Assembly (NCBI GenBank): GCA_965263035.1
Contig: OZ253580.1
Location: forward strand, 2,080,001-2,144,000
Length of the DNA: 64,000 nucleotides
Reading direction: 5' to 3'
DNA from: Acidobacteriota bacterium
GTDB taxonomy: Bacteria > Acidobacteriota > UBA6911 > RPQK01 > JAJDTT01
Shown: positions 8,342-38,139 of the stretch, in pieces
How positions within the stretch are numbered: the stretch's first letter is position 1
Layout of the letters: each line of letters begins with the position of its first letter
Made by a program: the position numbers and the translations under genes
Notes under the pieces: model-generated
What the model was told of the DNA's origin: nothing
Databases searched by the model: none
The model's input: only the letters and a program-made list of their open reading frames with translations

Positions 8342-8369
8342 GCTACGTATAATATCCTTTATCGTACTC
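8342..8369. other. dif-like 11-6-11 recombination site A
   Basis: GCTACGTATAA TATCCT TTATCGTACTC, 4 bp upstream of the recombinase ATG; 19-bp identical inverted copy at 38116-38134. Confidence 0.65.
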
Positions 8370-8573
8370 TAGCCCCCGCCCCTGACTCCCCCGTTCCCGG
8401 CGGCGGCCCCTTCTTTCTCAATCCGGTGATCCCATCGGGGTCAAAAACGAGCCCAAGACCCGATCCGCCGAGTCGGTGGCCCTTTCTACAATTCGGCCAG
8501 AAGGAATTCTCCCGCATCAGTCAATACTGTTGCAGGCGCTATCGTCTACCTGGAGGCCTCCAGGGACAAAATT

Positions 8574-8601
8574 ACCGCCGATAATTCTAGTTAACGGGTA
8601 C
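8574..8601. other. dif-like 11-6-11 site F overlapping the matrixin stop codon
   Basis: ACCGCCGATAA TTCTAG TTAACGGGTAC; right arm matches site E. Confidence 0.45.
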
Positions 8602-10308
8602 GGTGGAAAAAACACGCCCCGTGAACCGGAGCCCAATCATCGAAAAATCCGAATGGGCGGAGGACCGGACCTTCAGGAGATATACAATCCCCGAGACCGG
8701 AGGCGGAGAAATCAGCTCGTTGACGAATCCGGCTACGTTCGAGTGCGCCGCCACGGCCACGGATCCTGTGCCTACCGTACGACCCGCCGAGTCCTGCAAT
8801 GTGAGGTCATAAGTTCGCGAGAGATTCGTATTGTTCGCAATCGCCAGCCCGAGTTGAGCTCCGTCCCGACCGTCAACGATGATGCTATAGCTTGAGGACT
8901 CAACCTCCGTCGGAAACACCGTAGCTTCTGCGACCTTCGTTCCGAATTTGTCATAGGATGAATAGGTGAGTTGGCCGGATACAAGTGTGTCACAGTCTAC
9001 CGTTGCATAGCCGGTCTGGATTCGGCCAGTGCCCGTCGTTCTTGCCGACACGAAGCTACTGCCTGGAACGGTCACCGTGAACAAGGATGATCTTCCGTAA
9101 CCTCCAAAGTTCGCGTCCATGCCGTACAATTTCAGGCGGCAGATGGCGTCGCCACTCCTCGTGCGTGTCAGCGAAATCGTGGTTCGATAGAATGCGCCGT
9201 CGCTGAGAGCTCCAGTGGCAACCTGTGGGAATATCATGAGCGCGTTGTCATTGTTGGGAGGGAGAGGGGGATTCGCGGTTTCGAGGTTCCAGTTGAGGAC
9301 GATGTTGCCCGTTGCAGTTCCACTGCTGCCACTGAAACCGGCGACTCGAAACCTGTAGACTGTCCCCGCTGTCACGTCCAGGATCACACGGCTTTGCAGT
9401 CCGACGTCATCATCGCTTTCCGCAAGTGTCCTCAGCGCATTGACCCTCGTTCCCGTGTACACACCCAGAGTCGTGTCGAAACTGCTGGCCACCGTGTCAA
9501 CCGTCGCCGTCCCGCTCGAAATAGGGCGCCATTGCCACCACACTGACGAGGCCCCCTGGCCCGGTTCACCAGTCTCTACGGTGGCTCCGACGTTGCTGCC
9601 GATCGTCCTTCCCGTCGGCCCCGAAATCGCTAGTGCGTTCGAAAACATGTCGTTCGGCGGCCGGGTTTCTCCAGGCGGCGGCCGGGTTTCTCCGTATAGC
9701 TCGGCGACCCCGGCAATATCATCGACTTGTGGCGCTACGATGGTGCTTCCGAGGCGCTGGAATGTGGCCATGATGGCGGGGACATCGTCCTCGTGGTCCA
9801 GCCCAAGTGCATGGCCGAGTTCGTGTACGGCGAAACGGCGGAAGTCCACTACCCCCACCCAGTTGCCTGTCCCATACGGACCATCATAGACGTTCCAGGA
9901 ATACGCATTGTTGAAGTGAATATTTGATTGGAGCTTTCTTCCTTGCCTCGACCACCAAGTCGTATAAGCAACGATATTTTCACCAAAGGCATCACCACAA
10001 ACATCGCTCGCAAAACCCACTCCATTCTCAAAGTCTCCGGCGCTGGTTTGTGTCGGGAGGCCGTCACATGGATTCTCGAAAGTGTCGCGCCTTATCCTGA
10101 ATGCGAAAATGGTCGCGGCATTCCAGCGGCCCATCGCTTGCTCGAAGGCCGTATTCCACAAACCATCGGCCCCGGGTAGGTCCACGTTAAAGGTTGTAGT
10201 CGCGGAAGGCCACCTATGGTCGTGGAGGACATAGGCTTTGACCGCCGCCGCAAAGATGACGGCCAAACTCAACATCATCCACACTAGCAGTACAGACGGG
10301 CTCCTCAA
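8587..10308 (-). CDS. Secreted matrixin (M10)-family zinc metalloprotease with PPC-like and C-terminal beta domains
   Basis: Signal peptide; HELGHALGLDH; Met-turn AIM; PPNDxF...SVWWQW domain. Confidence 0.88.
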   Translation of the reverse strand: MRSPSVLLVWMMLSLAVIFAAAVKAYVLHDHRWPSATTTFNVDLPGADGLWNTAFEQAMGRWNAATIFAFRIRRDTFENPCDGLPTQTSAGDFENGVGFASDVCGDAFGENIVAYTTWWSRQGRKLQSNIHFNNAYSWNVYDGPYGTGNWVGVVDFRRFAVHELGHALGLDHEDDVPAIMATFQRLGSTIVAPQVDDIAGVAELYGETRPPPGETRPPNDMFSNALAISGPTGRTIGSNVGATVETGEPGQGASSVWWQWRPISSGTATVDTVASSFDTTLGVYTGTRVNALRTLAESDDDVGLQSRVILDVTAGTVYRFRVAGFSGSSGTATGNIVLNWNLETANPPLPPNNDNALMIFPQVATGALSDGAFYRTTISLTRTRSGDAICRLKLYGMDANFGGYGRSSLFTVTVPGSSFVSARTTGTGRIQTGYATVDCDTLVSGQLTYSSYDKFGTKVAEATVFPTEVESSSYSIIVDGRDGAQLGLAIANNTNLSRTYDLTLQDSAGRTVGTGSVAVAAHSNVAGFVNELISPPPVSGIVYLLKVRSSAHSDFSMIGLRFTGRVFSTVPVN

Positions 10309-10889: not shown

Positions 10890-11027
10890 GACAATGAAGC
10901 GCTTTCTAATCGACTATGTCCCCCGCGCTGAACCGCCCCTGATTTTCTGAACAGAGTGAGGTCATAGTAAATCAATCTGCTGAATTATTCGCAATGCTCG
11001 GATGCGCCGCCAGGTAGGCTCCCCTAG

Positions 11028-12786
11028 CCCGGAAATCTCAACAGAAAGATAGATAAAGGCCGAGTATTCTGCTATAAGTGTTGTGATATCAATAACTTAC
11101 AAAGCAGAAGGAACGCGACCTTATGAACGCAGAGTGTACCAGAACAAAGCTCAGATTTCAGGGCCTGGACGGACGGGACGTCGTGGGCCGGTTCGACGGT
11201 GGCGAGATTACCTCTGACGCCGGTGGCGTGCTCTTGCGCGAAGTGGAGCAGCGGACCCGGATTCTGGGCCGGCTGAGCGAGTGCTTCACCGACTATCGAG
11301 ACCCGGATCGAGTCGAACACCCGGTGGAGGCGTTGATCAAACAGCGGGTGCTGGGGCTGTGCCTGGGCTACGAGGACCTCAACGACCACGACGAGTTGTG
11401 CCGGGACCGGCTCCTGGCGCTACTGTGCGACCGGGACGACCTGACGGGGGAGTTCCGGCGCGTGGAGTCGGATCGAGGCAAACCGCTGGCAGGCAAGAGC
11501 ACCCTGAACCGACTGGAGCGGACTCCGTTGGAGGGACCGGAGGGCGCGTACAAGAAGATCGTGGCCGACCCGGCGGGGATGGACGAGCTGCTGCTGGAGG
11601 TGTTTGTGGAAGCGCATCCGGAGCCCCCGGAGGAGGTGATCCTGGACGTGGACGCCACGGACGATCCGCTGCATGGGAAGCAGGAGGGACGGTTCTTCCA
11701 CGGCTATTACAAACGCTACTGCTACCTGCCGCTGTACGTCTTCTGTGGGGAACATCTGTTGTGTGCGCGGCTGCGCACGGCGGATCGAGGCGCGGCCCAC
11801 GGGGTGGTGGCGGAGTTGGAACCGATCGTGAGGCGGCTGCGTGAAGCGTGGCCCCAGGTGCGGATCACGGTTCGAGGGGACAGTGCCTTCTCCAACGACG
11901 AGTTGATGGTCTGGTGCGAGAAGGAAGGGATCGATTACGTCCTGGGGTTGGCGCAGAACGATCGGCTGAAGCGGAGGATCGCGACCCGGATGGAGACCGT
12001 CCGGCAGTTGCAGCGGGTGATCGGGAAGGCGGTGAGGCAGTTTCAGGAACTACGCTACCAGACGCGGGACACGTGGTCGTGCGAGCGTCGGGTGGTGGCG
12101 AAGGTGGAGCACCTGCCCCGGGGAAAGAACCCGCGATTCATCGTGACTTCGGTCCCGGTCCAGGAATGCGATGGGCGCAGATTGTACGAGGAGGTCTACT
12201 GCGCGCGGGCAGACATGGAGAATCGGATAAAGGAACAGCAGCTGGGTCTGTTTGCGGACCGCACGTCGACCCGGAAGCTGGCGGGGAATCAACTGCGGTT
12301 GTATTTCTCGGCGTTCGCCTACGTGATGATGGAGACGTTGCGACGGGTGGGACTGGCAGGGACGAAGCTGGCGCGGGCGCAGAGCTGGACGCTACGGGTG
12401 AGATTGCTGAAGATCGGGGCACAGGTCCGGATCACGACGCGCAAGGTCTGGCTGTCGTTTTCCGAGAGCTACCCCCATGCGGGGTTGTTGCAGACGGTTC
12501 TGGCGCAAGTGCAAGCCCTCCCGCTTCGCTGTTAGCGAGAACAAGCCCTATGGAAGACGCCCGGTTGGGAGTCCGCGGGACGGACTCTGCCCTGGAATCG
12601 GCTCTTGGGGGAGAAACGTCGCTCATGAGTGCCGGTGGGAGGTCAAATGCCCCTGCGCATCGCCGGATTTCGGCTTTCGTCACCGCATTCGGGTCGGCCA
12701 GACGGCTCTCGAATTCATGTAGATAAGAAAACCACTGAAATGCTGTTAAACCAACTGATTATCGTGTCGGTGTTGAGAAATGGGGG
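11028..12786 (+). mobile_element. IS1380-family insertion sequence, complete
   Basis: Imperfect TIRs CCCGGAAATCTCAACA / TGTTGAGAAATGGGGG; flanked by CTAG/CTAA. Confidence 0.85.
11123..12535 (+). CDS. IS1380-family DDE transposase
   Basis: FDGGEITSDAG, LDVDATDDPLHG, RGDS, MENRIKE motifs. Confidence 0.95.
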   Translation: MNAECTRTKLRFQGLDGRDVVGRFDGGEITSDAGGVLLREVEQRTRILGRLSECFTDYRDPDRVEHPVEALIKQRVLGLCLGYEDLNDHDELCRDRLLALLCDRDDLTGEFRRVESDRGKPLAGKSTLNRLERTPLEGPEGAYKKIVADPAGMDELLLEVFVEAHPEPPEEVILDVDATDDPLHGKQEGRFFHGYYKRYCYLPLYVFCGEHLLCARLRTADRGAAHGVVAELEPIVRRLREAWPQVRITVRGDSAFSNDELMVWCEKEGIDYVLGLAQNDRLKRRIATRMETVRQLQRVIGKAVRQFQELRYQTRDTWSCERRVVAKVEHLPRGKNPRFIVTSVPVQECDGRRLYEEVYCARADMENRIKEQQLGLFADRTSTRKLAGNQLRLYFSAFAYVMMETLRRVGLAGTKLARAQSWTLRVRLLKIGAQVRITTRKVWLSFSESYPHAGLLQTVLAQVQALPLRC

Positions 12787-12870: not shown

Positions 12871-13821
12871 ATGATTAGGAAATCTGCTATGAATCATCCG
12901 AAGCGCGAAATTACTGAGCCGACTCGCCGCAACATCGCTGATGAGTTGGACCTGCATGGTGTAGCTCCCTACGGTCGGCTGGACGAAGTACAGTTCTTCT
13001 CGAGAATATTCAATCTGGAGGAGTTACCAACACGTGATTACCGCAGGCACCAATTCCCAGATATGGCGGCTGATCTTTGGCAGCACCGGGTTAACAACCT
13101 CGACTGGGACGACGGTTGGTGGTGGACGGATGACCGTCTGAATTTGCTACGCGGGTCCGATGAGACGTTCCTGCGCTTCCTTGCGGAGATGGTTCATCCT
13201 ATCGTCCGTCCTGATGAGGCAGAACGGGAACTCTGTCTTGAGGTCTTCAATAGGAACTTGTCGGCAGAAGGTTGGGAGATCGGCGCCGTGAGCCGAGTCG
13301 GTGCCCATCGAATCTACGGTGGACGACGCCTTGAGCAGATGCCCCACGCCGTTACTGCCGAGGCCAGAGAGCTGGCCCAAACCCTAGGTGACTATGTCAC
13401 CCGACAGGTTACGCGCATGGAATTCGCCATCCCCAATGATCCCCATCTTGCTATCGGCACGGCAAAAGAATTTGTCGAGACCATTTGTAAAACGATCCTT
13501 GAAGAGCGCGGAATCAACATCTCGGAGAACGAGGATTTTCCTGGTTTGGTGAGACGGGCGGTGAGGAGCCTGCCGATTGTTCCCGCCAGTATTGATGACC
13601 GGAACCGGTGGGAAGGGACCATTACTCGGCTAGTGAATAACCTTTCGTCTCTAGGCAGCAGCCTTGCGGAATTACGCAATGCGTTCGGCACGGGCCACGG
13701 TCGAACGGCCGCGCATATAGGCCTCGATGTCCACCATGCACGACTCGCGGTGCGGATGGCGACTACAGTTGGTGTGTTCATGTATGAGGTGCATGAGAGG
13801 AATCCCAGTTCCGCCCAGTGA
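12871..13821 (+). CDS. Abortive infection protein (AbiJ-NTD + Abi_C/HEPN)
   Basis: FLRFLAEMVHPIVR N-domain; AIGTAKEFVETICKTIL and ELRNAFGTGHGR C-domain. Confidence 0.85.
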   Translation: MIRKSAMNHPKREITEPTRRNIADELDLHGVAPYGRLDEVQFFSRIFNLEELPTRDYRRHQFPDMAADLWQHRVNNLDWDDGWWWTDDRLNLLRGSDETFLRFLAEMVHPIVRPDEAERELCLEVFNRNLSAEGWEIGAVSRVGAHRIYGGRRLEQMPHAVTAEARELAQTLGDYVTRQVTRMEFAIPNDPHLAIGTAKEFVETICKTILEERGINISENEDFPGLVRRAVRSLPIVPASIDDRNRWEGTITRLVNNLSSLGSSLAELRNAFGTGHGRTAAHIGLDVHHARLAVRMATTVGVFMYEVHERNPSSAQ

Positions 13822-14852
13822 GTTGCTATTCCGACACCCTTCTTAGGGGAACTATCAAGGGAAGTTGATAGGATCCAAAAGATAGTATGAAAACACCTTG
13901 TGAACATACTTAAGCCGGCTTCCTGCTATGCACGAATCTGGGGTCATCCAATTCATAGACGGACGGGCGACCCCTTCGGACGCACCAAAAACCTTGTGCC
14001 CATCACACCTCCAAACGACATGCACTACTTCAATTCCCCGGATTCGTGATGTTCTCCAACCTCCGAATCAGGACGTAATTCACCTCCCGAGCCGGCTGTC
14101 CCGGCCTGCGTTTTGCAATCTGCATTCATGGTCGCCAGCGGGTCGTCCTCTTGGCGCGGGTCCGAATCCTTCTGTTGCTTTGCTGTGGCAAGAATCCAGT
14201 AGGGATTGAATTCTCATTTGCTAGGAAACCCTCTAAGGCTCCGATCTGGTTCGCTGTCTAACGCTGTCCACGTCTTTTCCATGGCTTGACCGGATGGACG
14301 GTCCACTCGTCATGTCCCACTCCCCGGCTGGCGTTAGCATCTGGTGCCCGTGATCAACAGTGATCGGTAACAGGACTTCTCCGTTTCGGATAAATTCGCG
14401 CTCTAATGCACTCAGGGCAGATCGAGTCAGCACCCGCGCTGGCCTCTTGACCCGCTAGCTTTTTTCGCGAAGGCCCTGGTTCGCGGCGTGGGTCGCCGTG
14501 TTGGGCAAGCTGTGGAACCTAGTGTTGGCATCCGACACGGTGGCCTTTGTCTTCCGTCTCGCCGGCGCTGGGGGCCGGACGTCAGGTTGGACTCCGGACT
14601 CGCTTGGTGCTCTCACCGCCGGGGTCGAGTTCTATCGCATCGAGCCGCCTAGACTACGCGCCCGCAACCGCGTCCGCTAGTCCATGTTCGTAATGGTTGC
14701 CTGTAACACATCGATGTCAATAGGTCCCGACCCGGAGTCGTTGGCTGCCCCCCCCTGCGACCCGGTTTGGTCGCGCCCGGGTCCGAGCCTCAGGAAGCCA
14801 AGTGTGCCAGAGGCTGTGGCCCATCCTGCGCATTGAAATTAGCTCTTCCCGT

Positions 14853-17447
14853 CTATCTGCGGCGCCTCCGAATGGTGGTAAGCCAATCATCAAGCGCGGC
14901 GATATCCGCCTCGAGAGACGCAGGCTCCGGGATGTCCGCACGCGCACCTGCTGCCTGGTCGTGGCCCGGCAGCCATCTCGAGCACTTCGTCATCGCGGTC
15001 TCAACTGCCCTGCAGTCCTGTACTGCAATGTCCGCGATCACAGTGACATGCTGCGTTTGCACGCCGGGCCTGTAGCGTTCCACGACGCCGCCGAGAAGCA
15101 CTTCTTCAAGGCCGCGCTCCCATGCCTCCCGTAGCAAACCATAAATAAAGCTGGCCTCCTTTTCGTAAGCAGCTTGATGACCGTCGCGGTGGAGCTTCTT
15201 GGCCTGCTGGAGCAATTTTCTCAGATGGCCGACGCGTTTCGAAACTTTGAGGGCTACCCACGGCAGTTCTTCGACGCAGACGCCCGCGCCTATTGGGAGA
15301 TTCCTTACATGCTGGTCGAGTTGTGCAACGCCCTTGTCCTCGGAAAATTGCTTGAGAAGGAGTAGGAACATCACATCGTGCGTGAAGACAATGACCTGCC
15401 TTGCCTTCGCCTCCTCCACCAATCGGCGTGCGACGCCCTCTCGCCACTTATAGTCAAGCGAGGACACAGGGTCATCGAACACAATCCCTGAAGGATCGTC
15501 GGCAGTGCTGAGTTCCGCGAAGAACGCGGCGATGGATAGGCAGCGCTGCTCTCCCTCGCTGACCACCTTCGGCAATTCGACGCCGGGGGCACGCGTGAGG
15601 ACAAGCTTGTGGTACAGAACACCCTCAGCTCCACCGGCTTCGTCTAGTTCGACTTCCACGTGCCGGAAACCAAGTCTTGAAAGCTCGTCCCGAAAACTCT
15701 GCTTGAGTTTCTGCGTGACCACCTCGCGCGTGACCGTGGTGCTCTTCCTCGTAATCGCCTGGGTCTTGGTATCGTCGATGCACAGGCCATAGGCGGCGTA
15801 CCTGCTCTTGCGCTCGATCTCATCGAGGACAAGCTGCATGTGCCGTGCGAGTAGCTTGCGGGCGCGCAGTTCTCGAGCTTCCACGCTTAGCCGTTTCCGT
15901 TTTTCGTCGACGGCGCTTGTACGCAGTGTCTCCGCTCGCTCCGTGATCTGGCGTGCAACCGTGTTGATGGCGCCCCCGACGGAGGCTAGGGCTGGGCAAT
16001 CCCCGGCAAGGTCTCGATCCTCGCTCAATGCCGAAACGATAACCCGACGGCGCTCTTCGGCAGCTGCAAGCGCCGTCACGAAGGTGTCCGCCACGGCCTC
16101 ATGTTCGATACGAATATCTTCAATTGTTTCGTTAATGGACTCCGTCGAGACCTTGAGGTCCATGAAGTTCCTCCGGAGTTGCGCGACGGTTTCTCGGACC
16201 CGCCGGAGTTCCCGCTCGGTGGTCGAGGCTACAAACGCCTCGAATTGCTGGAGTCTGTGGCGGGCATCGTCGTCGAGATCCTGCTGGCAGAGCACGCAGC
16301 GCGCGCCGTTCTCCACGACCGGAAAAGGCTGCTTGGAATAGGCGGACTCCTGCGAAAATCGGTGGGCGGACTCCCAAAGCGCAGCCCAGGTTTCCGAACC
16401 CGTGCCAGCCAACATCCCTGTCTGGAAGGCAGCCGCCCGAAGTCTCTTCGCCGCCTCTCTCTTGCGGCGACCTTCCGCTCGGGCATTGAATGCCGTATCA
16501 ACAGCTTCCGCTGCCAGTGCCGCTTCCACAGCTTTGAAATGCCGGGCCAACCCTTCGACACGCGAGCCGCGAAGGGTGAGCTGGCGGATCAGTTTATTGG
16601 GATCGCTTGCTTGCAGGTCCAGAAGTGACCTTTCCAGCAGTGTGAGACGGGATTCTTCCTCCGCCGAGAGATGTGCGAGCGCCTTCACTGTCTCTGGCTT
16701 GGTGAGCGAAGTGATGTTCGCCAGCAATCTTGCGACAGCGGTTCCTTCCGGTATTTGGGATTGCACGGTTGCAAGGGCGCTTAAGGCCAAGGACTGTTGC
16801 TCTCTCTCAAGCTGAACTCGGATGGCCTTGCAAGCTCTGACCAGGTGGTCGAAGAGGTCAAGTCCAAAGGGCCGGAAGGCGACATCGGTCTTTTCCGTGA
16901 GGTAAACGGCGGCGCACCGTGCGTCAAACACGCTCACACGGGAGATAAACCCGTCCCCACCCTGACCGGCCCATTCGAATGGGTCGTACTCCGTGCCGAC
17001 TCTATACCTGATTGCCACGTCGGGTGTTGGCGGCATGGTCCCCGACACGACATTGCCGAGGATTTTCTCCTGTCCGCGGGCACGGCACGCGCTCTTGAGG
17101 ATGCGGATGTAGCCGGTCTTTCCGGCAGCGTTGTCGCCATAGACTACAGTGAGGTTCGGGCCGAAACTGAGGGTCTGGCGTTCCGCAAGGGCGTTCACGC
17201 CCCGGTGATGAAATATGGATAGGAGGGAGACCGGTGGAGTGGTGCCGCACCTATCCGGCACGTGATCCTTTGTGAGCGGTTTAGCTTCTTGCTGTTCGGC
17301 GAGACCGTGCGCAGCTTTGCAGATTTCCGCGAGCGCGCGAACGTCATCTTCGAGAAGCTCGCCGTTCACAACTAGGCGTCGTAGCGTGTCAGACTGCCAA
17401 GCGGGGCGGCCATGAGACCATTCGAAGATTTCTTGCAGGACGTTCAC
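14853..17447 (-). CDS. RloC-like ABC ATPase with zinc hook and C-terminal HEPN-like nuclease
   Basis: Walker A GDNAAGKT, coiled coil with CVLC hook, signature SEGEQR, Walker B VFDDPVSSLD, FTHD, C-terminal RWLPGH (Rx4H). Confidence 0.75.
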   Translation of the reverse strand: MNVLQEIFEWSHGRPAWQSDTLRRLVVNGELLEDDVRALAEICKAAHGLAEQQEAKPLTKDHVPDRCGTTPPVSLLSIFHHRGVNALAERQTLSFGPNLTVVYGDNAAGKTGYIRILKSACRARGQEKILGNVVSGTMPPTPDVAIRYRVGTEYDPFEWAGQGGDGFISRVSVFDARCAAVYLTEKTDVAFRPFGLDLFDHLVRACKAIRVQLEREQQSLALSALATVQSQIPEGTAVARLLANITSLTKPETVKALAHLSAEEESRLTLLERSLLDLQASDPNKLIRQLTLRGSRVEGLARHFKAVEAALAAEAVDTAFNARAEGRRKREAAKRLRAAAFQTGMLAGTGSETWAALWESAHRFSQESAYSKQPFPVVENGARCVLCQQDLDDDARHRLQQFEAFVASTTERELRRVRETVAQLRRNFMDLKVSTESINETIEDIRIEHEAVADTFVTALAAAEERRRVIVSALSEDRDLAGDCPALASVGGAINTVARQITERAETLRTSAVDEKRKRLSVEARELRARKLLARHMQLVLDEIERKSRYAAYGLCIDDTKTQAITRKSTTVTREVVTQKLKQSFRDELSRLGFRHVEVELDEAGGAEGVLYHKLVLTRAPGVELPKVVSEGEQRCLSIAAFFAELSTADDPSGIVFDDPVSSLDYKWREGVARRLVEEAKARQVIVFTHDVMFLLLLKQFSEDKGVAQLDQHVRNLPIGAGVCVEELPWVALKVSKRVGHLRKLLQQAKKLHRDGHQAAYEKEASFIYGLLREAWERGLEEVLLGGVVERYRPGVQTQHVTVIADIAVQDCRAVETAMTKCSRWLPGHDQAAGARADIPEPASLEADIAALDDWLTTIRRRRR

Positions 17448-17509: not shown

Positions 17510-17538
17510 CTGTTCCCCGCACACGCGGGGATGAACTG
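17510..17538 (+). CRISPR. Solitary type I-E CRISPR repeat
   Basis: CTGTTCCCCGCACACGCGGGGATGAACTG, canonical I-E hairpin and 3' handle; no further repeat at 61-bp spacing. Confidence 0.7.
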
Positions 17539-27854: not shown

Positions 27855-28011
27855 GATTACGATAAAGTGCAATTATCGTATCCTGATCCCTCCTGACGGG
27901 GACAGGCCGTCTTCTTCTGACCCGTGTTTCCGGTCGGCTTGGGGCTGATTCGCACCCCCCGGCACCCTCCCTTTTTCCAGAGAACGTCCGTTAATTTCAG
28001 TTAACGGACGT
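27855..28011. other. Composite recombination-site unit (site C, 7-bp core; site E, 6-bp core)
   Basis: TACGATAA AGTGCAA TTATCGTA and the perfect palindrome ACGTCCGTTAA TTTCAG TTAACGGACGT; linker similar to 22130-22200. Confidence 0.55.
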
Positions 28012-28054
28012 AGAGTGTCCATCGGGGGAGCCCGACCAAATCAGAGCGGCGAGG

Positions 28055-28997: not shown

Positions 28998-29062
28998 CCT
29001 TAGAGTCGAACTCCAAGGGTTCTTTCACTTGTGGGGCGTTCCAGCTGCGCCGTCCGTGTGGG

Positions 29063-29365
29063 TCAGCTGCGCGATTCTCGTCTTACAACATACAAGCCGT
29101 CGTATTCGACCAGGTCCTTTGGGGGTTCTCCCAGCGTCAGCACTCCCTGCCGCTCGGCGGTCTGCGGAGCGGCCCAGGTCATCACAACCGAGCCTTGGCC
29201 GTAGTATGACCACCATTCATCCAGCACTCTCCAGACGCGCTTGCGAACGGCCATCGTCATGTCAGGCTGCGTATAAACGCCCGGCGCAAGCTCCAGCATG
29301 CACGAGGCGAGAAATCCCCGAAACCGGGTCGGTACATCACAAGTCACAATCACGCACATTGGCAT
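29063..29365 (-). CDS. cas2: CRISPR-associated endoribonuclease Cas2 (I-E)
   Basis: RFRGFLASCMLELAPGVY..GEPPKDLVEYDG. Confidence 0.95.
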   Translation of the reverse strand: MPMCVIVTCDVPTRFRGFLASCMLELAPGVYTQPDMTMAVRKRVWRVLDEWWSYYGQGSVVMTWAAPQTAERQGVLTLGEPPKDLVEYDGLYVVRRESRS

Positions 29366-30221: not shown

Positions 30222-30244
30222 GCCAGCATCGTCTCACTTGCGTC

Positions 30245-31111
30245 TCAAGCCGGCCTGAGCAGCAACATGCCGAAGCCGAAACCACAATGTCGGCCGATGC
30301 CACCAGCAAGGAGGTCCAAAAAGGCCCCTGGCTCGGCGATCTCCAGCAGGCCGGTGAAATGGACATCCGGTCGAGTCAACCACTGAGCGGAGCGGTTGCC
30401 ATTGAAGTTACGCGGACGACGCATTAACCGAACGGACCGGTACGACTCGACCCGTACCGAACCCTGTATCAGATTGACAACTTGCGCCCGGTCTCCCTTG
30501 GCTGCAAGCCACTGAGCGAGCCATTCAACATAAGTTTCTGCTCGCGTGGGGGGTCGTTCGCCCCTCTCCAGTGCTCGGATTGCGGCAAGCTGGTGGGCGT
30601 CTACCTCCTTGCCCTTGCTCAACGTCGTCGTCCGGCGCTTCGAGTTATACGGCGTCACGAGCGGATTCATCAGACGTCGCACCGGACAAGCGCGGAGGTC
30701 GAAACGTAAACGCAGATCTTTTGGCCAATGAGTCGGCATCGGCTTGGAACCTGCGCGTTCCCAATCGATCATCGTCGACAATCCCTTGTTGTCGAGTTGG
30801 GCCAGAGTTTCCAGCGTCTCCATCGGGGCCCGGGCGTAGCCAAGCAGATCCATTACGCCGGCGCGGTTCGCAGCTGCACGGCGGCCAGCACGTTGTCGCT
30901 CGCGCTGGCCCACAGGGGACCAGTAAAAGGGTCTCGGCGCTTGTCCACCGAAGAGACCGGCTAGCGCGGCATGCACGGCGTAACCGATCTCTGCGCTCCG
31001 GGGTCGACCACTGCCGTCACCGGGTGGAACCTGGAGATAGCGCCGACGAAGCGCCCAGCTCGTGAAAGCGCGGAGTTCCAATGGCAAACGGATGAGATGA
31101 AGATTCGTCAT
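30245..31111 (-). CDS. cas6e: Cas6e/CasE crRNA endoribonuclease
   Basis: C-terminal GIGRHCGFGFGMLLL glycine loop; operon position. Confidence 0.93.
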   Translation of the reverse strand: MTNLHLIRLPLELRAFTSWALRRRYLQVPPGDGSGRPRSAEIGYAVHAALAGLFGGQAPRPFYWSPVGQRERQRAGRRAAANRAGVMDLLGYARAPMETLETLAQLDNKGLSTMIDWERAGSKPMPTHWPKDLRLRFDLRACPVRRLMNPLVTPYNSKRRTTTLSKGKEVDAHQLAAIRALERGERPPTRAETYVEWLAQWLAAKGDRAQVVNLIQGSVRVESYRSVRLMRRPRNFNGNRSAQWLTRPDVHFTGLLEIAEPGAFLDLLAGGIGRHCGFGFGMLLLRPA

Positions 31112-31890
31112 TCCGCATCCTTCGCAACCGTGTCTTGCAAGGTCAACCTCCCCGCCATCACGACACGCTCGCCGCCGTGCAACTGATTCCTCCAGTCACG
31201 CTGATCAGTAACGCGATAGGTGGAGAGGCGTTCTTCGGGTGACAAGGTGCGTTCATCCGCTATCGGCCACTCAGCCGCCAACTCAGCCGCACTTTCATCA
31301 CCAAGAATTTCTCTCCAACGGTCAGGGAATCTGACAGGTACTTGGGTAAGAGCGCACTTCAGACTCTTTGTATACTCGACAATTCCGATGACCATACGCG
31401 TCGACGGCAAGCAGGACTTGCGGCCGATGAAAAGCGGACGGGCGGGTGCGTCGAGGGCTTCGGCGAGGTTGCTGAGCGTCGGGGTTTCGTCCGCCGGAGA
31501 CAGCGAAATCGCCGCCAGCACACTGGCGTCGGCACGGTAGCGACGAAAACGGATATGGGTGCCGTAGCGCGCGTCCGTGCTACCGGCACGATGTTCCGGA
31601 TGGCCGCGTGTGGTCCAGCTTGGCGAACGGAGGTGCGCTTGACCCAGGTCAACCGTCTGGTAGTCCTGTACCTCCTCGCCCTCGCAAACCAGTGCGCTGG
31701 CCAACGACAGACGATCTTGCAGCGCCTGAAGTCGGTCGAAGTCCCCGTGTCTGTAGCCGAGTGCGTTCGCGAGCAGGCCGGTGACTTGGCTGATGGTCGG
31801 GAATCGCCCTGTCGGCCCGATCTGATCCACTTGGGGGCCGCCGAAGCTCATTAACGGAGCCTGTAGATGAACGATGAGCGTCGCTTGCAT
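31108..31890 (-). CDS. cas5: Cas5e/CasD
   Basis: LQAPLMSFG, FPT.S..GLLANALG, DYQTV, LFIGRKSC. Confidence 0.95.
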   Translation of the reverse strand: MQATLIVHLQAPLMSFGGPQVDQIGPTGRFPTISQVTGLLANALGYRHGDFDRLQALQDRLSLASALVCEGEEVQDYQTVDLGQAHLRSPSWTTRGHPEHRAGSTDARYGTHIRFRRYRADASVLAAISLSPADETPTLSNLAEALDAPARPLFIGRKSCLPSTRMVIGIVEYTKSLKCALTQVPVRFPDRWREILGDESAAELAAEWPIADERTLSPEERLSTYRVTDQRDWRNQLHGGERVVMAGRLTLQDTVAKDAE

Positions 31891-33074
31891 CAGGCTGCGT
31901 CCGGAACCTCACCGACGTAAGAAGCGGCCCAGCAAGCGAGACCATCCAGCGTCACGCGATCGCCGGTGTGATCGGGTACGGGTTCAATCATCGTAGCCAG
32001 TCTCCGGTCTTCGTGCGCGCCGTACATGCCGTCATAGCGCCGCAGGTAGTCACCGATCGCAGCGACTGTCTTCTCCTGCGCTTTCATTTTGCGAACCGGT
32101 TTCATGAACGCGTTTGCCAACGTGCGCGGTTGGTGTTCCCCGACTTCTCCCAGCACGAACTCGGCGCAAGCATAGGGAGCCGTCGCTCCCAGCTTTGCCC
32201 CCGGCGAGACGGTCGCGATCAGATGGATCAACCGGCGTAAAACCTCTGCTGCCAGCGCGCGGTCTTCCGACAGGTTGCTGACCAGCTGACGTAGATCAAC
32301 GACGACATAGGAGTAGAACAGGCCGCTGGTCAGCTCACTGGTATTGATATGGCCGGAACCGAGTTCGCCCTCGGCGGTGGCCAAGTCATCCAAAGCCGAG
32401 AAATAATCTGGTTCGGCCTCTTCGGCGTGTACGGTGAAGCTGTGAGCGACGTGCACGGCGGCATCGCTACGAGCCATCACGTCGGACGTCACCATTCGGC
32501 CGAAGAGCGAGGCATCCAACCCGGCGCCAAGACGCAGAGCCTTCAAGTTGTCGCGTTTCTTCCTGTCCTTGAAATAGGCAGCGACTGCCTTGGCCACGTC
32601 GTCAGCATCGCCTTGGGCAAGCTCCGTGGCCAAGGTAGTAAGAAAGGTGATTTCTGGTGGGCCCAGTACGATGACTTGCTCCGTATGCAAATCCGCAAGA
32701 AGATCTCCTCCTGTTTTGGCGGCCTGCTTGTCCTTGCGAGCCTGTTTGGCCTTGATGCTTTCGCCGAGTACGGCAGAGCGAATCGGCGTGAGGACGTTGA
32801 AGATCTGCTCTTCCGACAGGTGCTGTTTCTTTAGCCGGCCCGCAATCTCATCACTGAACACGCGCCGGGAGCGGACGGATCGGCCAGAGCCCAGATCCTG
32901 CAACGACCACTCACCCGTTGCCTCACGCCAGTGTCGCTTCAGGCACTGGGACGAGACACGGATGCGATCGCAACCGCCAAACGGCAGACGCTTAGCCCGA
33001 CCGATATCATCGCGGTTCAGGAGCGTAGCGGAATACCCGGTGAGGGTGTGAATTTGTAGGAAACGAGGGTTCAT
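31890..33074 (-). CDS. cas7: Cas7e/CasC backbone
   Basis: LNRDDIG, RVSSQCLKR, LFGRM, DYFSALDD, PRTLANAF. Confidence 0.96.
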   Translation of the reverse strand: MNPRFLQIHTLTGYSATLLNRDDIGRAKRLPFGGCDRIRVSSQCLKRHWREATGEWSLQDLGSGRSVRSRRVFSDEIAGRLKKQHLSEEQIFNVLTPIRSAVLGESIKAKQARKDKQAAKTGGDLLADLHTEQVIVLGPPEITFLTTLATELAQGDADDVAKAVAAYFKDRKKRDNLKALRLGAGLDASLFGRMVTSDVMARSDAAVHVAHSFTVHAEEAEPDYFSALDDLATAEGELGSGHINTSELTSGLFYSYVVVDLRQLVSNLSEDRALAAEVLRRLIHLIATVSPGAKLGATAPYACAEFVLGEVGEHQPRTLANAFMKPVRKMKAQEKTVAAIGDYLRRYDGMYGAHEDRRLATMIEPVPDHTGDRVTLDGLACWAASYVGEVPDAA

Positions 33075-33111
33075 GGTTGTTTCTGCTCCTTAGAAAATTT
33101 GAATCCGCGAA

Positions 33112-33684
33112 CTAGGATTGAGTGGCTTGAGCACGGAAATAGTCACGCGCCAGTTGGTGGATGGTGAATTCGGTTTGAATGCCCCTGTTCCGGGACTGAC
33201 CGAGCAACAGGCGAGCGGGCTGTACCCAGTTGGCCGCGCTGACGCCTTTTCGAGCGAGCCAGACTCCTGCGGTGCGTACCTCACGAGCCAGGTTCTCGCC
33301 TTCAGCGCGCAGCAATCGAACGAAACGATCTTCGGAATAGCCTGATTCAGCCAGCGCGGTCCCGAACGGCCGGTCGAACGAATGCGGGTTCGGCGCCATC
33401 TGGACCATCGCGCGGATCAGGGCCGCCCAGGCCAAGTCGACGCGTCGGTCAGGTCGGCCCACTGGTTCGCGCCACTCCGGCGGCACAACATCATTGGTCA
33501 AGTAGAGCCTCCAAAACGCCGGCGGCAACTCGCCACGCGAGATACGGCGAAGCTCGGCCAACTCTCCGGGGCCGATCCTGTCGGCATTCAAACGGTACGA
33601 AATAGTGGCGATCACTTGGCCTAAGCGCCGCGGCTCGGCCGGGTCATTTGAGATTGGCTTTCCAGCCACAACTTCCGTGCTCAC
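33112..33684 (-). CDS. cas11: Cas11/CasB (Cse2) small subunit
   Basis: LAELRR, SEDRFVRLL, LARDYF; position in operon. Confidence 0.88.
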   Translation of the reverse strand: MSTEVVAGKPISNDPAEPRRLGQVIATISYRLNADRIGPGELAELRRISRGELPPAFWRLYLTNDVVPPEWREPVGRPDRRVDLAWAALIRAMVQMAPNPHSFDRPFGTALAESGYSEDRFVRLLRAEGENLAREVRTAGVWLARKGVSAANWVQPARLLLGQSRNRGIQTEFTIHQLARDYFRAQATQS

Positions 33685-35249
33685 GAGGATCTCTCCTTCG
33701 AGTGTTGAGTGGGAAAGGCATCGGGCAGGTGCTTGCGCAAGCCACCGTACAGTACTGCTTCAGACTTGGCGCGAGCCTTCTCTCGCCGCGCACTGGGTGG
33801 CGACGTGCGGCTCCAAACCGCGTTCGCCAGCCTGACGGCTTCCTCCCGCAGAAATTGCTGCCAGCGACGGCTGGTTTCGTCGATGCCTTCGGTCGGCGCG
33901 GCGAACAGGGAATCGAAAAATCGCACGTCAATCGCACGATCGTATTTCGCCACGATCGGTGTGGCATCTCGTCTTTGGAAGTTGGGGTTTTCCGGGCCTT
34001 GCAGGTAGACAAGCACGGCCTGCCGCAGCACCCGTCGCGCCTCGCCGGCCAGGGAAACCATATTCTCCGAAAGTTTGGCCAACGGAAGCTTATTGTCCCA
34101 GTCATCTTCGTCGTCAGAGTCAAATAGCCTGACTGCCACCGAATACGACAGCGGGATGACACGTTCATGCAACCCTTCCGTTTTTCCCTGGCCTCGCACC
34201 AGCACCGTCATATGGATCTCAGAATCCTGTCCTCTCTCGCCAGGTAACTCCCTCAAAGACAGTGGTTTTGTCAACTCCCTGCGGTTGAACAAGATGCGTT
34301 GTGCCAAGCGGTAATCGAAGCCATTCGCGCTGACGGTAAGTGATGATTGGCCACCTTTCCCAAGATTGATCGGCACCCACGGGTCGCCCAAATTCCCTTT
34401 CAACGCCCGGGCCTGCACGCGGGTCTTGTTGGCAGGGAGCCCGAGCGCTCGAATACGCCCCTCCGGTCCGGTCGTCAGTCGCACTCGGCGACAGACTTCG
34501 ATGAAGTACGGATCTAGGTCACGCAGATTGAGTTGGACATCCGTATCCCAGTTCTGAAGCCAAGTGATCGCCAAACCCCCATCGGATCGGAAGAGGTCAT
34601 CGCTGACCCTCTCAAGCAGCTCCGAACGACGATTGAGGAGCATGCGTATGGATCGCACGATCCGCGGTCCCCATCGCGCGCTCGGCCGCCGATCGACGAG
34701 GACACGACTGGCTAGGCCTCCGTTCATTCGGGCAATGCCGGGATTTCGACGGCCGGAGTAGCCTTGGCTGGTTTGGAGTGTGACCAACGCGTAAAGCCAG
34801 GAGTGTGGTGCGGCGGCCGTTGCCTGAGCCTGTTTGCGGTCGTGGTTTTTGGCCGTCACCAGTACGTCGAGCGCGTCCGGTGTCTCTGCGACGAGCTTGA
34901 ATTGGTCGACCCTCTTCGTTGGCGGCTGAAGCAATGCTGGCTTGGACGCGTTCGCGGCCACCAGACTCCAAGCGGTGTCCGCACATTCGGGAGTCAACTC
35001 GGCCAGCGATGCCCGCCAGTCCTTCGAGGCACCGGGCAGATCTGTTCGGCCTACACGATGCAAAGCAATCGCGCCGAGCTGCGCCAGGAACTGATACCAG
35101 GCTTGCGCTTGGTGCGCGGTCAATCCGGGGAACGCGTCGACGGAATCGCTCACGAGTCGACCGAACAGCTCAGGCAACGTCACCGGGTCCGGTTCCCGCT
35201 TTCCATTGGACACAACTGGCACGAGTGCTTCGGTTAGTAAATCAAACAC
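33681..35249 (-). CDS. cas8e: Cas8e/CasA (Cse1) large subunit
   Basis: MFDLLTEALVP, LVTLQT..GYSG, FIEVCRRVRL, DPW, RGQGKT. Confidence 0.88.
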   Translation of the reverse strand: MFDLLTEALVPVVSNGKREPDPVTLPELFGRLVSDSVDAFPGLTAHQAQAWYQFLAQLGAIALHRVGRTDLPGASKDWRASLAELTPECADTAWSLVAANASKPALLQPPTKRVDQFKLVAETPDALDVLVTAKNHDRKQAQATAAAPHSWLYALVTLQTSQGYSGRRNPGIARMNGGLASRVLVDRRPSARWGPRIVRSIRMLLNRRSELLERVSDDLFRSDGGLAITWLQNWDTDVQLNLRDLDPYFIEVCRRVRLTTGPEGRIRALGLPANKTRVQARALKGNLGDPWVPINLGKGGQSSLTVSANGFDYRLAQRILFNRRELTKPLSLRELPGERGQDSEIHMTVLVRGQGKTEGLHERVIPLSYSVAVRLFDSDDEDDWDNKLPLAKLSENMVSLAGEARRVLRQAVLVYLQGPENPNFQRRDATPIVAKYDRAIDVRFFDSLFAAPTEGIDETSRRWQQFLREEAVRLANAVWSRTSPPSARREKARAKSEAVLYGGLRKHLPDAFPTQHSKERSS

Positions 35250-35338
35250 CGCTTATGTTTTCTCCTTGTTTCCCCATCTGCGACGCCCCCTCCAATGGGC
35301 GGACCTTTGATGCTCGTTCGCGAAGCTCACCTGACCTC

Positions 35339-35416
35339 GCGACCCCCGCATCTGCGGGGATGGACCCGCTGCCTGCTACGCGGTGCAAGCTTCCCCGTAT
35401 TGACGGGGACTAGGAA
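35339..35416 (+). ncRNA. Putative CRISPR-like mini-array (repeat - short spacer - degenerate repeat)
   Basis: R1 22/28 identical to the array repeat with intact stem and handle; ~21-nt spacer; R2 hairpin CCCCGT-ATTG-ACGGGG. Confidence 0.65.
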
Positions 35417-35436
35417 CAGCGGTGCTGTACCAACTC

Positions 35437-38055
35437 CTAATCACTTACGCGAACGAGCCCGAAGCGGTCGTACCGAAAATCATGCGATCCGAAGCGAAAT
35501 CGGATCGTATGCGAGCGGACATCAACGACCTCCACCTCTCCATCCTCTGTCGTCTCGCCGACCATCCAACCCGGTATGCTCAACGTACGCACCAACTGGC
35601 CGAAGGGGCCGAGGAGGGGTTCGGGCAGTTTCACGCGGTGGTCCTTGAGACCAAGACGCGTTTCGGCACGCTGATCCGAAACCGGCTGGTTATCGATCAG
35701 CGGTTCTTCCCAGCGGATTGCGACAGTATTGGCTCCCTGTCCCTCGGCCAACCTCTGGCCTTCCACGGATTGTAGATGTGTCGGCCAGATGCTGCCGAGC
35801 CGTTCGGCGTGGGCGTACAAGGCGGCATAATGAGTGGCAGTTTCAACGACCGCCCGGTTGTCGGCCGGAATGTGGATCTTTCCTCGAGCAACCAACCAGT
35901 CGCGGACGGCCAGAACACCAACGATGTTTTCGTAAACGCTGCCCAAGCCCAGCAATGTGCGCCCGCGCGGACTGCCAGTGCGCGAGTTCAAGGTGCCGGC
36001 AAGTTGCGCGGCCGTCGGCGCCAGCACAGTAATCCTCGCGTCTTCGAAACCAATCGGTCTGGGACGCTGGTGGCGGTGCAGACGACCGATGCGCTGTAGC
36101 AATACGTCGCCTGGTGCAATGTCGGTCACCAACCAATCCGCGCATATGTCGAGCGACTGCTCGGCCGTCTGTGTGGTTACTGCCACGACGCCGGATCGCT
36201 CTCCCTTGGGGAACGCGTTTTCCAGCGCATTATCAAGCAGTCGCCGGTCCTCTGGAGCGAATCGTCCGTGGTGCGGCGCAATCGTGCCCTCACAGCGCAA
36301 CAGACGAGTATTCCTCTCCTCCAGGCGTCGCACTGTCTCCTGCGCGTCGTCAACCCGGTTGCGAATGAACAGTACCGCCGCTCCCGCGGCCGCGGCGGCT
36401 TTGAGATGATCCAGCAGGACCGGGAAGTCAGATTCCGGATCGATCAACTCCACCACAACACTCTTTTCGCGTCCATCGCGGACCACCGACCGGAGAGGTT
36501 CGTCCGTGCGCTGCAACGAGGGATAGTGCAGCGCCGAAGCGTCCGAGACTCCGGGAACCGTGTGGGCCTCGATACGGCCAGCCAATAGACGCATCCGAGC
36601 TTGCGATCCCAGCGTTGCCGACATCAACAACGCATGCCCTCCGGACTTCGTGTGCTGGTTGAGCACGTTGCGCAACAGTGTCGTCATATAAGCGTCGGAG
36701 GCATGCACCTCGTCTATGCACAGCAGGAGGCGCAACATCGGGCCGGAGCGGAACGGAGCATGTCGCACGCGCAGTCCGCCCATCAAAACTTGATCGACGG
36801 TGCCCACCATCACCGCGCCGGAAAGATAACGCTTGGCGTTCTCCACCGCCCAAGTACGATCTCGGTCGGTTTCATCTGGCCAAAGAACGTCGTACGTGTC
36901 GGGCAGGGGCTGGCCTTCGTCCTCATCTACTCGAAGGTAGCCGGGCACCGCCAAACCTACTGGCGGAGTAGCTTCCCCGAACCAGCGCCGGAGCATGGCC
37001 CGGATGCGGCCGTGAATCTGAATAGCCGCTGCCCGGGTCGGTAGTGCGAAATAGAGGCCGTCGACCTGACCGGACTGGAATAGGCGCAGGAAGTGGATGA
37101 GTGCAGCCTCGGTTTTTCCGGAACCCGTTTCAGCCTCCAGTATTGTCGTTTGTCCCGGTTCGGGTAATGGCATGCTCAGCAACGCCTCTTGCGCGGGCCT
37201 GGGCCTGGTCAGGTCCGGGAAGAGTATCTTGAACTCCGCGACGAGTCCCCTAGCCGCATTTCGCGCGCGAGTCGGATCCAGCCACCGCCGCTTGATCAGA
37301 TCTGCTGCCTGCTGGCGGGCCCAAGGAATGCGAGCCTCCCCGGAAGGAATCGTTTTGTCCGGGCACAAGAACACCGTGGGGTCCGATCCAAGCCAGTCCG
37401 CGAGCGTGATCATGCCAGCGAGCGCATGCAGGAAGCGGGGGCTGTCCGGGAGCGTTTCATCGGGCTCGTCAGCGAATGCCTCCGAGAACATGTTCGTCAT
37501 GATCTGCGCAAGTTCAGAAAGAGCAACAAGCGGGTCGTATCCGTCGCGCTGCTGCCAGAGACTCGGGTCGGGCCGGGTCGACAGGTTGGCGGGGAGGCTT
37601 CCATGGTGGGCAAGCACCGCATTCCAAATCTCGACTTCCGCCTCCCAGTCCACATTCCAACGACGCCAAAGTGAAGCAGTGAGGGATTTACGCACCCGCT
37701 TGCGGAGCAAATAATGGCTACTGTGGACAGGGGAACCGCATAAGACGGACCATACTGGCTGGATGTGTCCACAGTCCGGCTTCCGGCGTTGCAAGCGCGC
37801 CTGGAAGCCGTGATTTGCCTTGCCCACATCATGGAGTCCGATGAAGAATCCGAGACGAGCGACATCGACATCCGAGAGATCGCGCTTGGCGAGTGCGCCG
37901 AGACGCGACGCCACCGTGGGCAATCGAAACAGTGTTTCGGCGACTGCGGCGACGTCGATCGAATGATCGACAAGACTGAGCCACCCGGACCGGGATTTTG
38001 CCCAGGCCCGTCCTGCTTTCTCCAATTCTGCCACTGCGTTGATCTCTGGCGCCAT
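35437..38055 (-). CDS. cas3: Cas3 HD nuclease-helicase
   Basis: HSIDV, LHDVGK, AHHG, LADWLGS, ETGSGKT, DEVH, SAT, QRIGRLHRH. Confidence 0.97.
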   Translation of the reverse strand: MAPEINAVAELEKAGRAWAKSRSGWLSLVDHSIDVAAVAETLFRLPTVASRLGALAKRDLSDVDVARLGFFIGLHDVGKANHGFQARLQRRKPDCGHIQPVWSVLCGSPVHSSHYLLRKRVRKSLTASLWRRWNVDWEAEVEIWNAVLAHHGSLPANLSTRPDPSLWQQRDGYDPLVALSELAQIMTNMFSEAFADEPDETLPDSPRFLHALAGMITLADWLGSDPTVFLCPDKTIPSGEARIPWARQQAADLIKRRWLDPTRARNAARGLVAEFKILFPDLTRPRPAQEALLSMPLPEPGQTTILEAETGSGKTEAALIHFLRLFQSGQVDGLYFALPTRAAAIQIHGRIRAMLRRWFGEATPPVGLAVPGYLRVDEDEGQPLPDTYDVLWPDETDRDRTWAVENAKRYLSGAVMVGTVDQVLMGGLRVRHAPFRSGPMLRLLLCIDEVHASDAYMTTLLRNVLNQHTKSGGHALLMSATLGSQARMRLLAGRIEAHTVPGVSDASALHYPSLQRTDEPLRSVVRDGREKSVVVELIDPESDFPVLLDHLKAAAAAGAAVLFIRNRVDDAQETVRRLEERNTRLLRCEGTIAPHHGRFAPEDRRLLDNALENAFPKGERSGVVAVTTQTAEQSLDICADWLVTDIAPGDVLLQRIGRLHRHQRPRPIGFEDARITVLAPTAAQLAGTLNSRTGSPRGRTLLGLGSVYENIVGVLAVRDWLVARGKIHIPADNRAVVETATHYAALYAHAERLGSIWPTHLQSVEGQRLAEGQGANTVAIRWEEPLIDNQPVSDQRAETRLGLKDHRVKLPEPLLGPFGQLVRTLSIPGWMVGETTEDGEVEVVDVRSHTIRFRFGSHDFRYDRFGLVRVSD

Positions 38056-38111
38056 CGTCGAATCTCAGCACGTTCTGTGCCGAGGTTCTATAAACTTGAG
38101 AGAGGCTTAAA

Positions 38112-38139
38112 GGGCACGATAAAGGATATTATACAACCT
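38112..38139. other. dif-like 11-6-11 site B upstream of cas3
   Basis: GGGCACGATAA AGGATA TTATACAACCT; shares ACGATAAAGGATATTATAC with the reverse complement of site A. Confidence 0.6.

Follow-up and report, generated by a model that had tools for sequence, protein, structure and literature searches.

The subject of this report is a 64,000-nucleotide stretch of DNA, hereafter the window, from an Acidobacteriota bacterium whose genome (G000, one 6.198 Mb contig with 62% G+C) carries it at G000:C1:2080001-2144000. The window holds a gene for a Xer-like simple tyrosine recombinase of 327 amino acids, which we call rec (7354-8337, minus strand; Pfam PF00589 and PF02899), together with a family of short palindromes that stand between gene modules of different content. 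A first reading of the sequence (the original prediction) had described seven related inverted-repeat sites and had proposed that they and a stand-alone recombinase make up an integron-like gene-cassette system. All seven sites are present where they had been placed, and a chance origin is ruled out: the pattern of one site class, T2, is matched 3 times in the window against 0.04 expected, the sites recur genome-wide, and a reversed-pattern control gives 0 matches in 41 genomes. Positions below are those of the window unless given in Mb or as genome coordinates; negative numbers denote positions before the window start, G001-G007 are congener genomes, and L-numbers are recombinase-homologue loci.

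The sites belong to two related classes, T1 and T2. Site A (8344-8366, plus strand; TACGTATAATATCCTTTATCGTA) is a T1-type palindrome in an attI-like position, six nucleotides from the rec ATG; the predicted adjacency holds, and the predicted distance of 4 bp, taken from a slightly wider site, does not. The other T1 sites are C (27858-27880, minus strand), a perfect 8-7-8 palindrome of spacer class TTGCACT, and B (38112-38134, minus strand), 56 bp from the cas3 start at 38055. Class T2 is represented by D (22205-22226, minus strand), recognised by motif match, and by E (27984-28011, minus strand), which is, as had been described, a perfect 11-6-11 palindrome adjoining the CRISPR trailer. Site F (8577-8598, minus strand) has hybrid T2/T1 arms and does carry the stop codon of the matrixin gene (8587-8589, minus strand) in its spacer. 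Site G (22101-22126, minus strand) is a diverged palindrome recognised by alignment; that it might be a tRNA fragment was ruled out, as ARAGORN and Rfam find only the tRNA-Leu at 21850-21936. An eighth site, T1'' (22421-22442, minus strand; GGGTAACGTACTTTACCGAC), was added to the original seven at a three-way homology junction described below.

Sites A and B have an identical 19-mer, ACGATAAAGGATATTATAC, with zero mismatches and on opposite strands, and the 18-mer GTCCGTTAATTTCAGTTA is common to D and E in direct orientation, which bears out both identities claimed earlier; overall, B, C, D and E point one way and A the other. A conserved linker of ~105 bp (27881-27983, minus strand; 98% identical to a copy at 6.157 Mb) joins E to C in a T2-linker-T1 unit, and D and G form a second unit of this kind, with G in the T1 slot. 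The third composite once proposed, A-F, is different, for its T1 is inverted relative to its T2 and its linker is ~210 bp long.

The positions also confirm that the cargo named in the original prediction lies between sites. A matrixin-domain protein (PF00413) is encoded at 8587-10308 on the minus strand. On the same strand, a 5 kb module (22900-27857) contains the gene for a LuxR-type protein (26455-27669) and that for a Calx-beta protein (23259-26222), and this module is absent at 6.157 Mb. A CRISPR array (28055-28997) and a type I-E-like cas operon (29063-38055) make up a further minus-strand module (28055-38055), which runs from B (T1) to E (T2).

The recombinase and the two site families

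The protein encoded by rec consists of a SAM-like N-terminal domain and a catalytic domain with its motifs, and it is without an arm-binding domain, which is the make-up of a simple tyrosine recombinase. It aligns with XerD (1a0p, E 1.8e-15), and the motifs around the catalytic residues are conserved. As had been predicted, the protein is not an integron integrase: it scores 53.2 bits against TIGR02249 (cut-off 265) and 19.9 against NF011946 (cut-off 435), and no IntI-type integrase was found in the genome, in which the best TIGR02249 score is 78.7 bits. It also scores far below the NCBIfam cut-offs for XerC and XerD; the host XerD is encoded at 947975 (382 bits, above cut-off), and a XerC-like gene is present as well. 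Judged by these models, rec encodes a Xer-like simple tyrosine recombinase that is neither IntI nor the host XerC or XerD.

The recombinase is not stand-alone, as it had been called, for the genome contains four intact copies (86-100% identical), one split copy, two copies at ~62% identity and five fragments. DNA homology among the copies begins inside T1, ~50 bp before the ATG, and continues to ~10 bp past the stop codon. A T1 site lies 6-7 nucleotides before the ATG at six of these loci (the four intact copies, the split copy and the 6146 fragment), and the two ~62%-identity copies have T1'' in its place; every copy that has kept its 5' end thus carries a T1-type site. At 3.684, 6.020 and 6.146 Mb such a recombinase/T1 platform is followed by an array in which every site is on the plus strand, and at 5.708 Mb a recombinase copy lies between T1'' and T2.

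Fuzzy searches and nhmmer scans of the whole genome extend the family described from the window to ~26 copies of T1, TACGATAA-N6/7-TTATCGTA, and ~27 of T2, TCCGTTAA-CTGAAA-TTAACGGA. The half-sites of T1 (arms CGATAA) and T2 (arms CGTTAA) differ at two positions, and hybrids between the classes occur not only at F but also at genome positions 6149195 and 3685493. The T1 spacers form classes (TTGCACT, AGATCAA, ATATAC/ATATCC and CGTACT), and the variant T1'' has arms TACGGTAA. The sites are clustered at 0.155-0.164, 2.088-2.118 (the window), 2.914-2.930, 3.139-3.142, 3.684-3.693, 5.17-5.25, 5.547, 5.656-5.661, 5.708-5.712, 6.02-6.04 and 6.146-6.194 Mb, with most arrays in the terminus-proximal 5.2-6.2 Mb. 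A recurrent order can be read in them: T1 with a conserved 20-bp flank, a leader of ~190 nucleotides, cargo, T2, the ~105-bp linker and then the next T1. The arrays at 3.684-3.693, 6.02-6.04 and 6.146-6.194 Mb are co-oriented, with all sites on the plus strand, and many T1 and T2 sites occur alone.

How widely are these families distributed? With up to two mismatches, T2 is found in all eight congeners (1-8 copies each, against 23 in G000), with its asymmetric spacer CTGAAA conserved in all eight, and it is absent from all 32 genomes outside the genus; exact T2 has 0 matches in Joint Genome Institute (JGI) metagenome contigs. The exact T1c form occurs in G000 only, and the T2-linker-T1 unit with the AGATCAA spacer is found also in the congener G004. 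The arm pairs of T2 include 38 broken and one compensatory among 400 cells, which shows T2 to be conserved as sequence rather than as a hairpin, and an RNA hairpin or terminator is ruled out by this lack of covariation and the absence of a terminator call. Scans of A, B, C, E and F called neither a sigma-70 consensus promoter nor an intrinsic terminator; the missing consensus match speaks against T1 as a sigma-70 promoter, weakly, since the scan covers this one promoter type. The conserved leader after T1 (~190 nucleotides, at 8367-8560 on the plus strand in the window) is homologous to six other post-T1 stretches and ends in GGAGG, which resembles a ribosome-binding site (RBS); such leaders stand between T1 and the genes for leucine-rich-repeat (LRR) proteins. 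The predicted fold of the leader has 4 compensatory pairs in 49, that is, little covariation, and Rfam has no family for the one T2-linker-T1-leader unit searched, that at 6.157 Mb (L019 13700-14800).

The genome has, in addition, a single canonical dif-like site at 5,875,249 (CGCATAA-TGAATA-TTATGTAAAC), near the GC-skew maximum, which has an ATAA...TTAT core in common with T1 and T2. That T1 and T2 are themselves the chromosomal dif is ruled out by their ~50 copies, by this separate dif and by the rarity of the palindrome, confined to 4 out of 301 genomes from the phylum, which is not the distribution of a phylum-wide dif.

The association of palindrome and recombinase gene reaches well beyond this genome. 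The palindrome stands before the recombinase gene at all five congener homologue loci examined and, as the original prediction would have it, just upstream (with at most two mismatches) at 27 of 35 homologue loci from other taxa. Acidobacteria-type loci have TAGACGATAA-AGTATG-TTATCGTCTA, with arms ACGATAA, and Planctomycete-type loci have ATGATAGACAA-N6-TTGTCTATCAT, with arms TAGACAA; the form of the site covaries with the recombinase clade across phyla, and on this comparison the linkage is old. Different metagenome-assembled genomes (MAGs) whose flanks are unrelated carry units of ~1.04-1.07 kb, measured from the palindrome to the stop codon, that match one another at 98-99% identity. The exact 20-nucleotide palindrome occurs on 114 metagenome contigs, with a recombinase beside it on 33 and no recombinase match on 81, and the 102 contigs usable on both sides fall into 81 left-flank and 65 right-flank clusters with varied neighbouring genes. 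As a separate observation, there are many scattered matches in Candidatus Marinacidobacterales MAGs (L097-L123), with several in each genome, that cover only the final ~50 residues of the recombinase.

Homology breakpoints at the sites

Pairwise comparison shows that copies of a site which have one flank in common mostly do not share the other. Among 32 T1 sites in G000 (496 pairs), 25 pairs share one flank, counted at a score of at least 80 out of 250, and in 22 of the 25 the other flank scores 18 or less; among 28 T2 sites (378 pairs), 14 share one flank, and in 13 of these the other scores 26 or less.

Individual junctions are equally sharp. For example, window positions 38118-40234 are 98.6% identical to genome positions 2929668-2931784, with homology that begins inside the spacer of B and an opposite flank that is unrelated, such that this T1 site separates cargo from a P4-type integrase module (38135-40235, minus strand; int at 38924-40075, with a 17-bp repeat at 40219-40235). 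The C-E unit is 98% identical to 6156834-6156989, and the homology stops at the outer edges of both palindromes. At the three-way junction, T1'' is the stretch common to two adjoining matches, that of 20968-22439 to 2.914 Mb (99%) and that of 22423-22899 to 6.157 Mb (96%). Relative to the 6.157 Mb locus, the window has 5 kb extra, the LuxR-type and Calx-beta genes, directly after T1 and before a gene that we call X.

Breakpoints of this kind occur between genomes as well, where the original prediction had looked for changes of gene content. G000, G006 and G007 agree downstream of T2 at one orthologous locus (294-334 of 400), but upstream of it G007 instead matches another array of G000 (312 of 400). 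Other cross-species T2 matches involve the C-terminal domain of LRR genes and are therefore less telling. The palindrome spacer is also where homology breaks off among L050, L051 and L053, which belong to another genus; L050 and L053 come from one genome.

Contigs assembled from sequencing runs contain a clean joint of 22896 to 27856 in X1, X7 and X8. As a recombination product it was set aside, since it most simply represents the paralogous 6.157 Mb locus, and it has no part in the evidence; two other joints, 27886 to 27988 and 27926 to 36377, with sides of just 21-22 nucleotides, were disregarded, and stretches that lack coverage in X1 and X2 carry no information.

The cargo of the arrays consists mostly of large LRR proteins (760-2397 amino acids, some with PKD, S8 or M66 parts), along with Calx-beta, Ig-like and TPR proteins, and the LRR genes have a common C-terminal domain of ~230 amino acids just before T2. 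Orphan CRISPR repeats stand directly beside T2 at genome positions 155561 and 5660583.

Several further observations concern these same stretches. Lone sequences resembling the CRISPR repeat occur outside the array at window positions 17510-17537 and 35339-35366 and at genome position 140353, as well as at the two T2-adjacent positions just given, and one lone repeat lies between cas3 and the next cas gene. The array itself has 16 repeats, with an identical spacer in two neighbouring units (28421-28570), and contigs from other runs join its repeats across different spacers, so that array content varies between samples. The segment 20968-22439, with the tRNA-Leu(taa), G and D, is duplicated at 2914429-2915901 (99% identity), where it adjoins a ~62%-identity recombinase and lies in the opposite orientation relative to a second P4-integrase module.

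A candidate gene-capture platform and its alternatives

We think it probable that T1 and T2 are double-stranded, dif/lox-like core recombination sites of the Xer-like recombinase family and that they bound cargo modules. The basic unit would be the ~1.05 kb combination of a palindrome and the recombinase gene directly after it, present in several phyla, the sites of which would have multiplied in this Acidobacteriota genus into the related classes T1 and T2. Co-oriented arrays would start from a recombinase/T1 platform; the recombinase would cut at T1 and T2, and recombination between like sites would excise, insert or swap the intervening DNA, as it may still do today. Cargo modules would by such recombination be reassorted among arrays and integrative islands, and the reassorted cargo would include large LRR surface proteins, proteases, the Calx-beta/LuxR module and a complete CRISPR-Cas locus. 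In favour of core recombination sites are the tie between site and gene with its covariation across clades, the breakpoints within and between genomes, the co-oriented arrays, the free orientation of cargo, the sequence conservation of T2 and the preserved XerD-like active-site motifs. We offer more tentatively the broader proposal that this is a second, independently evolved gene-capture platform, grown from a seed unit of ~1 kb, in which a Xer-like recombinase with an attI-like T1 would shuffle T1/T2 modules as double-stranded DNA.

If the recombinase does act at these sites, integron-like gene capture would not be unique to IntI and attC; a plain Xer-like enzyme with lox/dif-type sites would be able to do likewise, mobilising modules up to the size of a CRISPR-Cas locus and diversifying the surface LRR proteins of a poorly known phylum. 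The defined pair of a 327-residue enzyme and sites of 22-28 bp would also be of interest as a recombination tool, and the sites would provide a new marker by which metagenomes could be searched for exchangeable modules.

A number of observations weigh against recombination at these sites. No second site follows the recombinase unit, which stops at the stop codon of its gene, and no recombinase gene consistently adjoins T2. Loci outside the genus yielded a single site each (one per contig in 44 contigs of at least 5 kb), and arrays may have developed in this lineage alone. The spacers of B and of its counterpart at 2929666 disagree at 3 of 4 positions, and since the T1 spacers form differing classes, classical two-strand exchange between unlike sites is not expected and a non-classical route would be required between classes. 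No circle, inversion, insertion or deletion product was seen in the assembled contigs. Finally, the shared regulatory ends of an expanding paralogous family would look much the same, with T1, its conserved 20-bp flank and the leader ahead of LRR genes and T2 placed 11-60 nucleotides past stop codons, and the counts of gene orientation that bear on this point rest on a crude home-made gene caller: the gene after T1 is on the same strand at 15 of 26 sites and that before T2 at 18 of 27, while 10 of 26 T1 and 9 of 27 T2 sites face opposite-strand genes.

Could the sites then be the ends of a regulon, with T1 as operator or promoter plus 5' untranslated region and T2 as a 3'-end signal, both spread by LRR-gene duplication, and with the recombinase autoregulated? 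The 15 of 26 T1 sites that precede a same-strand gene, usually by ~120-190 nucleotides, fit such an arrangement, as do T2 sites that start 11-62 nucleotides past a same-strand stop codon in at least eight cases, the RBS-like end of the leader, the common C-terminal domain just before T2 and the overlap of the recombinase-adjacent site with the place where the recombinase promoter must be. Set against this are the missing sigma-70 promoter and terminator calls, the lack of compensatory changes in T2, and the sites that face opposite-strand genes; with cargo orientation free in this way, a pure promoter/terminator role does not fit. Moreover, the switch in homology falls exactly on the sites where they border unrelated stretches (P4-integrase module, recombinase, CRISPR-cas), and site and recombinase clade covary across phyla. 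We regard a regulon as unlikely, though deserving of some weight. Rather improbable, to our minds, is that the T2-linker-T1 unit (~150-250 bp) is a non-autonomous element like a miniature inverted-repeat transposable element (MITE), derived from a recombinase-bearing parent and scattered intergenically, and not a cassette border. The 98% copy of C-E with homology ending at the outer palindrome edges is what one would expect of a MITE, the 5.708 Mb recombinase between T1'' and T2 has the layout of a full-length parent, and the unit recurs in G004. Yet T1 and T2 are not inverted copies of one another, many sites are single, and no empty site for a bare unit was found; gene X accompanies the 98% pair at each of its two loci, as would be expected if a segment had been copied and 5 kb inserted at T1.

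Two further alternatives keep site-specific recombination and change its agent or its purpose. Host XerC and XerD might use T1 and T2, as with Acinetobacter pdif sites, which would make the adjacent recombinase irrelevant. The host has XerD and a XerC-like gene, the architecture is Xer-type (arms of 8-11 bp, a spacer of 6-7 bp), and the core common with dif points the same way, but the arms of T1 and T2 are symmetric and those of the dif at 5,875,249 are XerC/XerD-asymmetric, several phyla have a dedicated recombinase next to a site that varies with the recombinase clade, and the family palindrome is confined to the few phylum genomes mentioned above. We judge this very unlikely. The palindrome and recombinase might instead be a multimer-resolution module of the Cre/loxP or XerS/difSL type left over from integrated plasmids or islands, with the other sites as decayed remnants that have no function today. 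Homologues at 40-57% identity on 136 plasmid records, one of them adjoining a ParDE pair, and the single site per locus outside the genus would agree with such a module; the ~50 well-conserved sites, with a spacer kept in eight congeners, are not decay products, the arrays are ordered and co-oriented, and 81 of the 114 metagenomic palindrome copies stand without a recombinase next to varied genes. That explanation seems to us highly improbable.

How, then, does the proposed recombination system compare with those already described? Among working systems it most resembles integrons and the Xer-dependent pdif modules; its basic unit comes nearest to single Xer-like recombinases that have their site beside the gene. 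Like an integron, the system has a tyrosine recombinase gene with its own site at the 5' end; at 3.684, 6.020 and 6.146 Mb this gene and site face a co-oriented array, at 6.146 Mb divergently from the site-bounded cargo, and the cargo is varied and not fixed in orientation. The integron-like shuffling of the original prediction is partly supported, by the site family, the arrays and the breakpoints at sites; the sites themselves are of dif/lox type and not attC-like. An integron proper is ruled out by the type of integrase and of site: the recombinase falls below the TIGR02249 cut-off, and T1 and T2 are palindromes of 22-28 bp conserved in sequence, whereas attC sites are single-strand sites conserved in structure. 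Two alternating site classes, a multi-copy platform and modules of up to 10 kb with several genes and a conserved leader are further differences. Mycoplasma vsa/vpma switching, in which a Xer-like recombinase inverts DNA between inverted sites around one promoter, is similar in that its sites lie in the conserved 5' region of surface-protein genes near the recombinase gene; in contrast, all sites of an array here point the same way, and some of the cargo, CRISPR-Cas for example, has no surface function. In Cre/loxP, a plasmid-resolution recombinase is paired with one adjacent site. For XerS/difSL, the published summaries describe a single-recombinase Xer module with the site adjoining the gene (PMC2731167, PMC1914069). 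Unlike either of these, the present genome has at least four intact recombinase copies, not a single terminus site, and it has host XerD/XerC and a canonical dif, with ~50 further sites that bound cargo; nor does this copy number agree with Xer/dif dimer resolution, which uses one terminus site per replicon. In Acinetobacter, according to the summaries of the reports, modules bounded by dif-like pdif sites are reassorted between replicons (PMC6449649, PMC13141974, PMC12907356). The modules of the present genome are likewise bounded by Xer-type sites of 11-6-11 architecture (with arms of 8-11 bp and spacers of 6-7 bp), but these sites are chromosomal and co-oriented, whereas pdif sites alternate in orientation, and the symmetric arms, the dedicated multi-copy recombinase beside the site and the separate host dif are also unlike pdif modules. 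A literature search by titles and abstract openings found no prior description of this system.

The surrounding island and other features of the window

All seven of the first-described sites lie inside a 49.8 kb island, which the first reading had not seen (window -9587 to 40235, genome 2070413-2120235). Its ends are marked by a 17-bp direct repeat, GACACCCGTTCCGCCAC, with only two copies in the genome (-9587 to -9571 and 40219-40235). In all five congeners examined (G001-G005), the DNA of -11393 to -9571 directly abuts the core gene at 40239; the island is thus absent and its site empty in these relatives, which makes it a 49.8 kb insertion in G000. The lack of any match to 12871-17447 in five congeners agrees with the island and is not independent of it. 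The integrase at the right end (Pfam PF13356, PF22022 and PF00589) is an arm-binding P4-type enzyme, and with the flanking direct repeats and the empty site in relatives the insertion has the features of a P4-type island. It is unlike the T1/T2 modules in that its att repeat is unrelated to T1 and T2, and site B marks the end of the integrase module and the start of cargo.

Several other repeats were observed in the window. An insertion sequence of ~1.64 kb (11018-12655) with an open reading frame (ORF) of 470 amino acids has ~17 copies in the genome at 93-98% identity, and two more dispersed repeats lie at 17845-18423 and 18416-20338. A 166-bp repeat is found at 6120-6285 and 23026-23191 (92% identity), with a further match at genome positions 5596011-5596093. 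Beyond the island, 41461-41541 consists of three tandem 27-bp units (GTTCGGCGGCTGGAAACCGCCG...), the motif of which is repeated widely in G000 and was met in each of the five congeners searched; it has the look of a genus-level family of dispersed short palindromic repeats. Finally, long Asp/Gly-rich repeat arrays lie inside large ORFs at 54200-59100, which probably encode repeat-containing surface proteins.

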